This document shows positions 25,001-31,000 of a stretch of 64,000 nt of DNA, piece after piece. Position 1 is the first letter of the stretch. Each line of letters starts with the position of its first letter. The DNA comes from Escherichia coli (GTDB taxonomy: Bacteria; Pseudomonadota; Gammaproteobacteria; Enterobacterales; Enterobacteriaceae): NCBI RefSeq assembly GCF_017348835.2, contig NZ_CP072312.1; one strand, 5' to 3'. The position numbers were made by a program.

Positions 25001-28000
25001 ATCCGGTAGTGAGGAGGGAGGCGAAAGGGTTAACGTACCGAGAATTTTATCATTAGCATCTCGGGCTTCCACCTGAACAGGTGTTTTATCATCAGCCTTC
25101 ACCAGACGGACCAACAGCAAACTTTTCCGCAGGCTGGTCAGATGTTGTTGACTTTCCCCTTCTTTAGGATGGGCAGATAAAATCTGGCTCTGTGCAAATT
25201 TCACCTCAGCGGCCAGTCCCCCCTGCAGATCATTTACGGGCTGGGTGGTATTGAAATAAATGGCTGAATTATTATCAGCAGCAGTTGCAGCAAATGCTCC
25301 CATCGCCAGAGAGGCAAGGATCATGCATGACAGATACTTTAATTTCATAAGTGTACTCCATCTTTCATTTTAGATTTCATGCAGCCGGATATAATAGAAG
25401 TGTTAAATTTTATTTTTTCAGGAGTGATTCACTCATTCACCAGTGTTGATTTTTATAACACACTTATATCTACTTCAGAAAGATAACCTGATAAAAAATA
25501 TTAACTCCGATCACATTCTTCTATATATTCCATCACAATATTTTGTTTAAAAAATGTTAAATTCACTATCTTCGTGATAATTAACAAACAGGGTACAAAA
25601 CCAGTAACTACAAAATACAATAAAAAAAATACATATCGCATTTTATCGAACATAGTGAACATTAGCTATTGCTATATTTTATTTTTTTGTATTAATCTCA
25701 TTTAAAAAAAACAACCACAACGCGAAAACAATAAATAAATAACAAATAAAACTCATTTTTATTAAAATAAAAAACAAAAGAATATATCCTTAATCACAAT
25801 ATCCAGATGCTCCTCCCCACGTAATATAGACACAGGCCCAAGCGAGGTTCTGGTTTTCAAATTGTTCCGGACAGAGACCGCCACACCAACTGTGCCGTCG
25901 TCACCGATTGTAATCACATTCGATCTGAACCGCCCCGGAAATCCTGGAGACTAAACTCCCTGAGAAAGAGGTAAACAGGATGACTAAAAATACTCGTTTT
26001 TCCCCCGAAGTCCGTCAGCGGGCGATTCGTATGGTTCTGGAAAGTCAGGATGAATATGACTCACAGTGGGCGGCAATTTGTTCCATTGCCCCAAAGATTG
26101 GCTGTACGCCGGAGACTCTGCGTGTCTGGGTTCGCCAGCATGAGCGGGATACCGGGAGTGGTGATGGTGGACTCACCACCGCTGAACGTCAGCGTCTGAA
26201 AGAGCTGGAACGTGAAAATCGTGAACTGCGCCGCAGTAACGATATCCTTCGCCAGGCTTCCGCTTATTTTGCGAAGGCGGAGTTCGACCGCCTCTGGAAA
26301 AAATAATGCCACTGCTGGATAAGCTGCGTGAGCAGTACGGGGTCGGACCGGTATGCAGCGAACTGCATATTGCCCCGTCAACGTATTACCATTGTCAGCA
26401 ACAGCGACATCATCCGGATAAACGCAGTGCCCGTGCGCAGCACGATGACTGGCTGAAGAAAGAGATACAGCGCGTATACGATGAAAATCACCAGGTATAC
26501 GGTGTGCGTAAAGTCTGGCGTCAGTTGTTACGGGAAGGTATCAGAGTGGCCAGATGCACTGTGGCACGTCTCATGGCAGTTATGGGACTTGCCGGTGTTC
26601 TCCGGGGTAAAAAGGTCCGCACTACCGTCAGCCGGAAAGCCGTTGCCGCATGCGACCGCGTAAACCGTCAGTTCGTGGCAGAACGTCCAGACCAGTTGTG
26701 GGTGGCTGATTTTACCTGGGTAAGCACATGGCGGGGCTTCGTCTATGTGGCGTTCATCATTGATGTGTTTGCCGGATACATCGTGGGGTGGCGGGTCTCA
26801 TCGTCCATGGAAACGACATTCGTGCTGGATGCACTGGAGCAGGCGTTGTGGGCCCGTCGGCCGTCCGGCACAGTCCATCACAGTGATAAAGGTTCTCAGT
26901 ATGTATCACTGGCCTATACGGAGCGACTAAAAGAAGCAAAACTGCTGGCATCAACAGGGAGTACAGGTGACTCGTATGACAACGCGATGGCGGAGAGCAT
27001 CAATGGTCTTTACAAAGCGGAGGTAATACACCGTAAGAGCTGGAAAAACCGTGCAGAAGTGGAACTGGCCACACTCACGTGGGTGGACTGGTATAACAAT
27101 CGACGATTGCTGGGAAGGCTGGGTCATATCCCTCCGGCAGAAGCAGAAAAAGCTTATTATGCTTCCATCGGAAATAATGATCTGGCAGCCTGAGTTCACA
27201 GATAAAATACTCTCCAGGAAACCCGGGGCGGTTCACCCCTAATTCAACTAATTGGAGGCATTACCATGCATTAGTGCAAGCGCCTTGTGGATTCTTTTGC
27301 TAATGACGGAAACATATTGTACAATATTGCATTTATCCCTCAATAAATAAATGAGTTATCAGATTGCAAAAATCTGTTATCAAACTAATTCAAATAAAAA
27401 GAGATTGATACGACCAACGTACACAAAAATTTTCGATATTCGAACTAAATAACAGCTCCTAATACCGCTACACTTTAGCTATCCAGTCTGCGCCTCAGAA
27501 ATGGACGATGCCGTTGAAGGACTGGTGTATGGCAATGAGCCGCTTTATTATCGAATTCGGTGACCGCCTGGACGGTCACTTCGGAGAAAAGGCATTTACA
27601 CAGCATCCTAAACAGGTTCAGCATAGGTGATATACCGCCTTTTCATTTTCTTCTCCATTATTTATAAGGGAGGTGTATTATTATGCAATATTATTGGTTT
27701 TACCCATTGTTTTTTTCAGTTCATGAATGTTTGCAAAAAAATAAATGAACAACAATTTTATGTATTTAAAATAAATTAATTTTACTTCTGTAATGGTGTC
27801 ATGATTAGCAGCTTTTTAAACTAATATCGACTTTCAATAAATAAGGACAGGTAATGGACAACAAAAATATCTGAACCCGGGTGAGATTCATAAGTTGCAC
27901 AGTGCTGTCTTTAAAGTGCCACACCCGGAACGTAATCACTGCCTGCTCCTTATGGGGTATCTTCATGGTGTCCAAGCATCAGAGTTATTAGGTATAAAAC

Positions 28001-31000
28001 TGTCTGATATTGATTTGCAGGCCGGTAACCTGAATATCCGGCGGCTCTAAACGGTTTGTCAACTCAGCCCCTCGGCTGAAACAGGAGGTACAGTCCATTC
28101 GTCGCTGGCTGAAACTTCGGGATGAATGGGTAGAAGAGGGATATAAATGGTTATTTAACCTCTATGGCAGGTCTGCTACAGGTATTACTGTTGTTCTGGG
28201 GGGGGGCACTGGTGTGGTTAATATCTACGATGCAAGAGATTCTCACGATGGCCCGGTCCATCAGTGCATGCGGCGCGATATTGTGCGAGTATTTTTCAGG
28301 GGGAGTGGTATCCGGATGCAGAAAATTCCGCTACTCGACTGGTTTTATGCAATAAATCAGTATGATAATCTTCTGATTTTTTACTGAGGCGGATATCTCT
28401 CGCTGTGTTTACTGAAATTGCGGTATTCTGTTTTTTCTGAAAAACAGAAAATCTGATTAAAAAGAGCATATGCGTTAAGGGAAATTTAAGTTCTGGTTGA
28501 TTAACTGATAAAAATATTAAAAAATCCCTGTTGTCGGTAATCTCCGGACCATTCCGGGATTACACAATAATATCACCATGTGTGATATCTATGGATCCTC
28601 ACTGTTGTTTACGCGAGGATATTTTCAGAATGCTTAACAGACGATAATTTTTTATGTTGAATGCAAGGCATCTTCCCGTACTGATGTATCATCATGTCAG
28701 TCGTTGTCCGGGGCTTGTGACACTCTCACCTGAAACATTTTGTGAACAGATGAAGTGGCTCGCAGATAATAACTGGCGGACGGTAACATCTGCTGAGCTT
28801 GAATATTTTTATCAGGGGGGAACGCTTCCACGAAAGAGTGTCATGCTCACATTCGATGATGGTTATCTTGATAACTGGCTCAGAGCATGGCCGGTCCTGA
28901 AGGAATATAACCTTCATGCACATATTTTTCTCATTACGGGGCTGATTGGTAAGGGAAACGTACGTAGCAGGCAGGAGCAGGAATATTCTCACCGCGACTG
29001 TGAACGGTTGATTGCCGATAACCGTTCAGATGAGGTCATGCTTCGCTGGTCTGAAGTCCGGGAAATGCGTGATTCCGGACTGGTTGAATTTCATGTGCAC
29101 ACCCATTCACATAAACGCTGGGACAGGTTGTCTGTATCACGTGCTGAACAGTGCCGGCTCATGAAAGAAGATATTCTGGTGGGAAAACAATGTCTGACGG
29201 AAAAGCTGGGGTTCTGTAGTTCCCATCTGTGCTGGCCTGAAGGATATTATAATCGGGATTATATTAATCTCGCCGGTAAGCTTGGTTTCTCTTATTTATA
29301 TACAACCGAAAGAAGAATGAACTGTCCTGAAAATGGTTCATTACGCATAGGGCGTATCAGCACCAAAGAGCGGGAACATTCCGGCTGGCTGAAACGACGC
29401 CTTTTTTATTATACAACGCCACTTTTTTCTTCAGTACTGGCTCTTCATAAGGGGCCAAGATTACCAGATAATTAATGATGAAAATTTTATTCACTGAATC
29501 TTCGTCAGATATTGGGGGCCAGGAGCTGCAGGCACTGGCCCAGATGACTGCTCTTCAAAAGCAGGGACATTCCGTTTTACTTGCCTGCAGGGAAAAAAGT
29601 AAAATTGCTCCGGAAGCCAGAAAAAGAGGGCATGATGTCACTTTTATCCCTTTCAGGAACAGCCTTCACCTTCCTTCCATCCTCAGACTTCGACGGATTA
29701 TCGGGGAATTTAAACCTGATCTGGTCATCTGCCATAGTGGCCATGACAGTAATATAGCAGGACTGAGCCGTCTGATATGCTGTCACCGCTTCAGTATTGT
29801 CAGACAAAAAACCTACATCACCCGTAAGACCCGAACGTTTTCCCTGAATTATCTGTGTGATTTCATTGTTGTGCCTAGCTCAGCCATGATGGCGCATCTG
29901 ATGGCGGAAGGTGTCAGGACACCGGTAACGGTTATTCCACCGGGTTTCGACTGGCCCGCATTGCATAATGAAGCCATGCGACCGTTACCCCTGCATATCC
30001 ACGCCTGGGCTGCATCAGCAGACAATGTTCCGCTTATCGTTCAGGTGGGGATGCTACGTCCCGAAAAAGGACATGAATTTATGCTGCGTGTATTGTATCA
30101 GCTGAAGATGGAAGGGAAATCATTTCGCTGGCTCGTGGTGGGCGCCGGGCGTGAAGAATACGAAGCACGTCTGCGTCAGCAGACAGAACACCTGGGAATG
30201 AGCGGAGATGTGTTAATGGCAGGTGCCCTTTTCCCAGCGTTACCGGTCTACCGGATTGCCAGTGTGGTGGTCATGCCTTCGGAAAATGAAGCGTTTGGTA
30301 TGGTACTGGCTGAAGCGTCAGTCTCTGGCGTGCCCGTTATCGCCAGTGAGACGGGCGGGATCCCTGATGTCATTCAGAAGAATGTGACAGGGACGCTGTT
30401 ACCCGTGGGGGATGTGTCTGCATGGACCGGCGCACTGCGCGATTTTTTATCCCGACCGGAACGCTTCCGGATGATGGCAGCCAGCGCCAGAGAAGATATT
30501 GAGTGCCGGTTTGATATTAACAGAACGGCACAGATCATTGTGTCTCTGGCTAGTCAGGCTAAGGGGAAATGTAACAGATAACGGCGGATCCTCTTTTCAG
30601 CCCGAATTTTGTTCAGCGGTTTTCCGGTAACGGAGTAATTTATCACATTGTTTAAATACGGGGACGGTCAATGCATTTAAATACCGGACAGAACAGGCCT
30701 ACTTTCAGCTGGAGTGCGCTGGGATGGGCAATTTTTTATTTTGGCTTTTTTTCCACTCTCCTGCAGGTCATCATCTTCAGCAGTGGGTACAGCGGAACGA
30801 ATGGAATACGGGACTCACTGTTATTCAGTTGTCTGTGGTTGATCCCGGTGTTTCTCTATCCTGATCGGATAAAAATAATTGCAGCTGTTGTCGGTTTCAT
30901 TCTCTGGGGCACGTCGCTGGCAGCACTTTGTTATTATTTTCTCTATGGTCATGAATTCTCTCAAAGTGTTCTTTTCGTTATGTTTGAAACGAATGCCAGA

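Follow-up and report, generated by a model that had tools for sequence, protein, structure and literature searches.

A decayed FimB/FimE-type invertase gene upstream of ecf1 on an EHEC virulence plasmid is probably the scar of a collapsed Escherichia island

Introduction

Why does a broken recombinase gene stand in front of the ecf operon of a virulence plasmid of enterohemorrhagic Escherichia coli (EHEC), and did it once switch this operon on and off? The question was raised by a stretch of 64,000 nucleotides of the E. coli contig NZ_CP072312.1 (assembly GCF_017348835.2), hereafter called the window, to which coordinates refer unless another locus is named. The molecule it comes from belongs to the pO157 family of EHEC virulence plasmids. 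An initial annotation had placed a decayed FimB/FimE-like reading frame at 27857–28200 and offered two origins for it, namely the relic of an invertible promoter switch that controlled ecf, or a fragment of an integrative element. Here, we report that the relic covers 27618–28155 and is very probably what is left, without function, of an ancestral Escherichia island after its collapse by a deletion.

Results

Identity and lesions of the invertase pseudogene

The gene remnant begins with an ATG at 27854–27856. Compared to its intact relatives, the DNA alignment revealed three deletions of 1 nucleotide (nt) each. The first removed one base just after the start codon and leads to TGA at 27872–27874; one extra A in the run 27863–27867 keeps the frame open in a few rare alleles from EHEC (P0002). 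The second deletion, between 28047 and 28048, leads to TAA at 28048–28050, and the third is located between 28068 and 28069. After repair of the frameshifts, the translation reads MDNKKYLNPGEIHKLHSAVFKVPHPERNHCLLLMGYLHGVQASELLGIKLSDIDLQAGNLNIRRL.NGLSTQ.PLRLKQEVQSIRRWLKLRDEWVEEGYKWLF. This repaired translation matches the Pfam family PF00589 (E-value 1.1e-12, 48.5 bits with a cut-off of 27.1, profile positions 2–89 of 172) and two NCBIfam models named “tyrosine-type DNA invertase,” NF007370 (E-value 7.2e-24, 84.5 bits, profile positions 9–108 of 200) and NF007371 (E-value 2.8e-22, 79.2 bits, profile positions 1–94 of 198). The bit scores of both NCBIfam models fall under the cut-offs for full-length proteins (221 and 222, respectively), since only profile positions 1 to approx. 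108 of 200 are present. The identity of the relic is 82–83% to P0001, an intact Escherichia invertase of 186 amino acids (aa), and 38% to each of the K-12 proteins FimB and FimE. These family matches, together with the three deletions and the two stops, bear out the decayed FimB/FimE-like frame with a stop and frame changes that had been noted.

Besides the frameshifts, the protein alignment showed that the catalytic arginine of box I is replaced by glutamine (CAA, 27973–27975), whereas arginine occupies this site in FimB, in FimE and in each of the three intact invertases of the island (see below); the motif of the intact relatives is HGFRASE. The gene is missing from codon ~103 onward, including the HxxR and tyrosine catalytic residues. 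A blastn comparison with the intact gene did not find the C-terminal half of the invertase past 28155, and pieces of open reading frames (ORFs) in 28150–28470 had no Pfam match even at an E-value of ≤10. Thus, neither an uninterrupted frame of approximately 186–200 codons nor the full RHRY catalytic set is present in the relic. All lesions as well as the junction at its right end are identical in the window, pF2_18C and pO157.

The position assigned in the initial annotation needs some correction. Its start corresponds to codon 2 of the gene, and its end is 45 bp too far, since blastn homology to intact invertase genes ends at 28155 and 28158–28200 is native upstream DNA of ecf; the end of the pseudogene is separated by 498 bp from the ATG of ecf1 (28654). 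Likewise, the surroundings had been called AT-rich. This is true for the DNA upstream of the gene (27650–27850, 21–26% guanine-cytosine (GC) content) and for the part close to ecf (28350–28650, 32–37% GC), but not for the pseudogene itself (43–51% GC). Parts of the relic have been annotated before. The RefSeq annotation pipeline PGAP predicts a 44 aa ORF at 27916–28050 as a “site-specific integrase” (WP_001364580.1), and in the ecf module of pO157 (ecf1-4/msbB2) the relic ORF is listed in UniProt as Q9ZGU6_ECO57 with the name “Regulatory protein.”

The relic is larger than this single pseudogene. Using blastn, 27618–28155 was found to be colinear with 7750–8305 of L004, one of the loci with an intact island, at 83% identity, and its left part preserves the beginning of a second, divergent invertase gene (Table 1). 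The intact counterpart of this second gene at L004 7218–7778 (minus strand) encodes a PF00589 protein of 186 aa. In the island of E. coli no107 (L015), the match of this part is 2217–2255 for 27618–27656, with 92% identity. The intergenic region between both invertase genes has a GC content of 21–34% and presumably held the divergent invertase promoters. On the left, the relic is cut by an IS1414-like fragment, which truncates the divergent invertase gene. According to megablast, approximately 27478–27620 matches annotated “IS256-like element IS1414 family transposase” genes with 84–94% identity. The open frame of this insertion sequence (IS) fragment (27508–27630) continues into the divergent invertase remnant.

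An intact island in Escherichia

In a protein search (5.8 billion sequences), one close intact cluster was detected, consisting of P0001 and its allies with 186 aa and annotated from E. coli, E. albertii and Escherichia sp. E. coli no107 carries the intact island in its chromosome, and about 40 sampled Escherichia contigs have it as well. The order at P0001-type loci was the same in all contigs examined: a gene for a substrate-binding protein, an invertase gene on the minus strand, an invertase gene on the plus strand, a spacer of about 500 bp, an autotransporter gene (803 aa) and a gene for an inverse autotransporter (intimin/invasin-like, approx. 1700 aa). In no107, the genes annotated after the invertases encode the autotransporter, the inverse autotransporter, a Wzz-like protein, a thioredoxin-domain protein, a small hypothetical protein, a serine acetyltransferase and an SdiA-regulated-domain protein; a spacer of 576 bp, ecf1, ecf2, cptA (ecf3), lpxM (ecf4) and a gene for an OmpC-like porin follow. 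From the second invertase gene onward, all of these genes are on one strand. The order from autotransporter to porin is repeated on eight further contigs, and a metagenome scaffold (L021/L035) bears both invertase and ecf. Of the 5,426 E. coli genomes available as complete sequences, no107 alone has the intact locus; the others yielded neither a close intact copy nor an intermediate form. No intact copy or intermediate was detected in the plasmids of PLSDB, where the next best hit had 60% identity and originated from Salmonella.

The deletion junction and the upstream region of ecf1

The comparison of plasmid and no107 island by blastn gave two more colinear blocks in addition to the short match at the divergent invertase: 27864–28155 corresponds to L015 2451–2744 (82% identity) and 28158–33524 to L015 16189–21518 (94%). 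Based on these three colinear blocks, the plasmid form equals the island minus L015 2745–16188 (NZ_CP075374.1 70744–84187), a segment of 13,444 bp. In 527 E. coli records, the junction falls within one contiguous match to 27700–28650. To its right, 255 bp extend from the end of the relic to that part of the ecf upstream region which is shared with other loci. These 255 bp have no protein-family signal, and a sensitive DNA search found them outside of EHEC plasmids only once, in the no107 chromosome 13 kb downstream of the invertase pair. Of the 576 bp upstream of ecf1 in the island, the plasmid retains the proximal ~496 bp. Divergence from the island is 82–83% identity for the relic, 84–86% for the noncoding DNA upstream of ecf and 95–96% for the ecf coding sequences (no107), a pattern which fits a single ancestry of relic and ecf as judged by sequence.

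Two other ecf loci share less of this upstream DNA: 243 bp upstream of ecf1 in a chicken E. coli chromosome with complete ecf1-4 (L013), and 180 bp in the E. albertii plasmid pEA4_88 (L012, shf-GT4-virK). Consequently, the core of the conserved regulatory region is delimited to approximately 28411–28653. No recombinase gene or invertase relic was found at these two ecf/shf loci. Thus, the proposed comparison with related ecf loci gave a divided answer, as two of them are free of recombinases and the island has an intact switch system.

Within the upstream region, a poly-G tract differs between plasmids. The window and pF2_18C both have G9 at this site, whereas pO157 has G6 and the intact island reads GGTGGG; further lengths are implied by the database ORFs P0004 and P0006. 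This variation could be true slippage or a sequencing error in a homopolymer. Two observations concern the operon itself. The intergenic region of ecf3 and ecf4 (32393–32528) has 67% identity to the island with 36 gap columns, with 96% identity in the flanking genes, and the start of lpxM is annotated variously, resulting in 311 or 332 aa.

Search for an invertible element in the window

A search of 27240–28650 for flanking inverted repeats of a former invertible segment had been proposed. With a minimum distance of 50 nt between the arms, the longest perfect inverted repeat in this region measures 10 nt, a length equaled or exceeded in 147 of 200 dinucleotide shuffles. Repeats of 7–9 bp are indistinguishable from chance by statistics alone; the pairs of inverted repeats in 27200–28700 were all short, AT-rich and at chance level. 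When the whole window was searched for half-sites similar to those of fimS or of the island switch (see below), two matches with three mismatches each were obtained, which are distant from the locus and correspond to the chance frequency. Further, 28156–28653 has no similarity to the spacer of the island switch, which lies wholly inside the segment absent from the plasmid. No inverted variant of 27700–28650 was found among ~530 E. coli plasmids, which were all colinear at 95–100% identity.

A fim-like switch in the intact island

In the intact island, a perfect 16 nt inverted repeat, TGAACCAAAGTGTAAA, is located at L004 8567–8582 and 8796–8811 and delimits an element of 245 bp. None of 200 shuffles reached this repeat length. 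The left repeat begins 6 nt past the stop codon of the invertase gene, and the element ends approximately 250 bp before the start of the autotransporter gene. Besides L004 (8567–8811), the element was seen at L005–L011, L014/L015 and L024–L053, and the repeat was present in all 40 sampled loci. Its form across the loci is TGAACCAAAGTGT(A/C)AA, with extended arms of 29 nt at 79% identity. In five loci, position 10 has A for G in both arms together.

The orientation of the element is the same in 39 of the 40 assemblies and inverted in the remaining one, L043 (copy at L043 1767–1876). Starting from the left flank, L043 tracks an in silico inverted version of its sister locus L042 over 177 nt, up to an IS903-like insertion. 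The alignment score of L043 was 170 with inverted L042, but 81 with the assembled form, and the left repeat of L043 bears the variant usual in the right repeat. Since the segment is inverted exactly at the repeats, this is the signature of a site-specific inversion. We conclude that the 245 bp element of the island is a real fim-like invertible switch. The suggestion that the window's pseudogene once belonged to an invertible switch was therefore borne out by these related loci, in which one island unites ecf1-4 with the intact invertase pair and the element, inverted in one case.

When the element is in its common orientation, its minus strand shows, by eye, a perfect TTGACA followed by GATAAA 16 nt downstream. 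With this candidate promoter on the minus strand, the common orientation would be OFF. In analogy to ipuS-upaE and fimS-fimA, the switch most likely phase-varies the autotransporter and inverse autotransporter genes after it. In the literature searched, no paper on this island switch was found, and it is apparently undescribed.

Plasmid context and left edge of the ecf module

The record nearest to this stretch is pF2_18C_FIB from a pig isolate (99.7–99.8% identity), and the classical pO157 plasmids have 98.5–98.9% identity across it. The ecf module in the window is the canonical EHEC module, with 98.5–100% identity to ~530 plasmids; 27240–28650 is covered in a single piece in ~480 plasmids. 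The leftmost segment of the module (27236–27477) begins directly after the right end of an IS3-family element. Similarity of pO157 (L002) to the window begins at 27235/27236, and 27194–27235 matches only ends of IS3-family elements. Using blastn, no match of 27236–27477 was found in the intact island or in the other loci fetched.

The DNA to the left of the ecf module varies among plasmids (window 25980–27235 compared to L002 3028–3509). In the plasmid studied here, an intact IS3-family element is preceded by stcE; in pO157, an IS1 remnant is preceded by espP; and pF2_18C has an IS91 together with the same IS3-family element as the window. As the left flank differs between plasmids, the left edge of the module is a hotspot of IS-mediated rearrangement. 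The coordinates of all features are summarized in Table 1.

Table 1. Features at and around the invertase relic, in coordinates of the window.
Feature	Position	Strand	Remarks
stcE	22688–25348	−	
IS3-family element	ORFs 25980–27193; right end ~27235		
AT-rich segment	27236–27477 (242 bp)		GC 25–36%; left end of the module common to EHEC plasmids
IS1414-like (IS256 family) transposase gene, 3′ fragment	27478–27617	+	megablast
Second, divergent invertase gene, start codon and first 9 codons (MKRRYITYA)	27618–27646	−	ATG 27646 down to 27644
Intergenic region between both invertase genes	27647–27853 (207 bp)		aligns to 223 bp of L004 (7779–8000)
FimB/FimE-type tyrosine DNA invertase pseudogene, codons 1 to ~102	27854–28155	+	
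Deletion junction with filler TA	28156–28157		invertase codon ~102 / distal ecf upstream DNA
Native ecf upstream region	28158–28653 (~496 bp)	+	colinear with L015 16189–16683, 84–86% identity
Poly-G tract	28198–28206	+	~450 bp upstream of ecf1
ecf1	28654–29475	+	ATG 28654
ecf1–ecf4	28654–33524	+	polysaccharide deacetylase, GT4 glycosyltransferase, CptA-type phosphoethanolamine transferase, LpxM/MsbB2; colinear with the island

Discussion

The sequence comparisons now trace the ecf module of EHEC plasmids back to an island in Escherichia chromosomes (E. coli, E. albertii, Escherichia sp.), from which the plasmid form would be derived. We propose the following course of events. The ancestral island would have carried the divergent invertase genes and the 245 bp element about 250 bp before the autotransporter gene, with ecf1-4, an operon for lipid A/LPS modification, located ~13 kb downstream behind an upstream region of their own of 576 bp. 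A single deletion of 13,444 bp may have fused codon ~102 of the invertase gene to DNA 496 bp away from the start of ecf1. Lost with it would have been the invertase's catalytic half and the switch, along with the two adhesin genes and some five others. An IS1414-like element would have removed the first invertase except for nine codons, and the remnant would later have gained three frameshifts and the exchange of the catalytic arginine for glutamine. Accepting this course, the plasmid should now possess neither recombinase activity nor invertible DNA at this site, and ecf should be expressed from the inherited upstream region. The relic would persist via its physical linkage to ecf; its presence in ~530 plasmids is explained by this linkage within a young, near-clonal module. 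Most likely, it has no present-day function, having no catalytic capacity and no substrate.

Some points weigh against this proposal or the parts of it. The direction of events would follow from parsimony, i.e., a damaged compared to an intact gene, rather than from a rooted phylogeny. With 82–83% identity of the relic to any intact copy, the true donor variant is outside of the sample. Further, the intergenic part resembles the L004 type and not the no107 type, which would imply mosaicism among islands. As to the switch, L043 is a single inverted case and is, in addition, interrupted by the IS903-like element, and a strict consensus scan detected no promoter inside the island element. Finally, one possibility is that the AT-rich DNA of the relic has a role in cis-regulation of ecf, for which it is a candidate only.

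This last point leads to the alternative which survives best, although we consider it improbable: the relic may have been co-opted, with 27647–28155 contributing to the thermoregulation of ecf. It might do so as curved DNA or as a site where H-NS binds and nucleates, or else by providing a temperature-sensitive promoter from which transcription reads through. Promoters of fimB and fimE are modulated by H-NS and temperature, and the intergenic region of the relic is, with its low GC content of only 21–26%, of a suitable composition. Moreover, the relic is retained with its exact junction in ~530 plasmids of many serotypes, and ecf is reported to be thermoregulated via intrinsically curved upstream DNA termed “BNT2,” as described in a passage of the review PMC2811833 citing Yoon et al. 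(2004). This review gives no coordinates for BNT2, and a paper on H-NS motifs contained no detail on ecf. However, linkage and the young age of the module explain the conservation, since identity is 98–100% everywhere, obviously neutral positions included. Further, a rough wedge model, to be read qualitatively, predicted the strongest bends at 28300–28349 and 28450–28499, which is native ecf upstream DNA and not the relic. A simple scan detected no consensus sigma-70 promoter on the plus strand in 27400–28750, and two weak terminator-like hairpins are located between relic and ecf1. If co-option were true, DNA of a dead invertase gene would help to thermoregulate a lipid A-modifying operon in EHEC, and the length-variable poly-G tract at 28198–28206 could add strain-to-strain variation of ecf expression.

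Slightly less credible still is the original idea that the promoter of the invertase switch directly controlled ecf and that the present arrangement is this switch in decay. Certainly, the invertase pair, the switch and ecf1-4 belong to one island, every gene from the switch through lpxM has the same orientation, and ancestral read-through from the switch promoter into ecf over 13 kb may have occurred. Nevertheless, the island switch precedes the autotransporter gene by only ~250 bp, and its distance to ecf1 is ~13.4 kb, with some seven genes in between. ecf1 has its own 576 bp of upstream DNA, which is retained in the plasmid and partly kept at ecf/shf loci free of recombinases. The window, in turn, has no inverted repeats above chance level, no half-sites near the locus and no similarity to the switch spacer at 28156–28653. 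Thus, the switch probably never directly controlled ecf.

Hardly any credence can be given to the remaining proposal, that the fragment stems from the integrase of a phage, an integrative and conjugative element or an island that delivered ecf: the Pfam label of PF00589 (“Phage integrase family”), the PGAP name “site-specific integrase” and the IS-mosaic surroundings point in this direction, but the best models are invertase subfamilies of ~200 aa (E-values of 1e-22 to 1e-24 compared to ≥3e-5 for Xer/integron-type models), the intact homologs are single-domain proteins of 186 aa which have no arm-binding domain and adjoin an invertible element instead of an island boundary, and no tRNA gene is located in 20000–36000, which is why an integrative-element integrase was rejected.

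Several known switches can be compared with the island. Its architecture parallels that of IpuA/IpuB-ipuS-upaE of the uropathogenic strain CFT073, which, like the island, combines two FimB/FimE-type invertases, an element of ~250 bp and an autotransporter as target. ipuS has 260 bp with 7 bp repeats, and the adjacent ipuR gene is of the LuxR type (Battaglioli et al., 2018; PMC6083910); the island element has 245 bp. In both systems, one repeat lies at or overlaps the 3′ end of an invertase gene. Unlike ipuS, the island repeats have 16 nt and no LuxR-type ipuR gene is found between switch and autotransporter gene. The island invertases represent a lineage other than those of ipu: in the 5,426 complete E. 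coli genomes except no107, DNA similarity to them was 68–77% and limited to the conserved C-terminal third of invertase genes. In contrast to ipu, the window keeps only a dead N-terminal half, and the switch is deleted.

FimB/FimE-fimS of K-12 belongs to the same recombinase subfamily (NF007370/NF007371). The island half-site CATTCTGAACCAAAGTGTAAA and the left half-site of fimS, CAATTGGGGCCAAACTGTCCA, are alike in about 13 of 21 positions when compared by eye. However, fimS has 314 bp, 9 bp repeats and a fimbrial target, and fimB and fimE are arranged in tandem, whereas the island pair is divergent; unlike fim, the window has neither a switch nor an active recombinase. FimX (HbiF/IpbA) is the closest named E. 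coli paralog of the intact homolog, with 58.7% aa identity in tblastn, and hyxS on PAI-X also has inverted repeats of 16 bp (PMC6083910). In contrast to the island, FimX is a single recombinase with a LuxR-type regulator as target, at another locus and with no link to ecf. The EHEC module with its relic also differs from related loci of the ecf and shf-capU(rfbU)-virK types, since the invertase relic is absent from the chromosomal ecf locus L013 and the shf-type locus L012.

Taken by itself, the relic in the window is an ordinary pseudogene scar, partly annotated before. What is apparently new, to a modest degree, is that the ecf module of EHEC would have arisen by a deletion; no paper describing this was found in the literature searched. 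The island switch adds a member to the network of FimB/FimE, IpuA/IpuB and FimX. The deletion of 13.4 kb provides a marker of a dated event common to plasmids of O157, O26, O111, O145 and other serotypes. For studies on the expression of ecf/msbB2 of EHEC plasmids, phase variation of ecf need not be considered.

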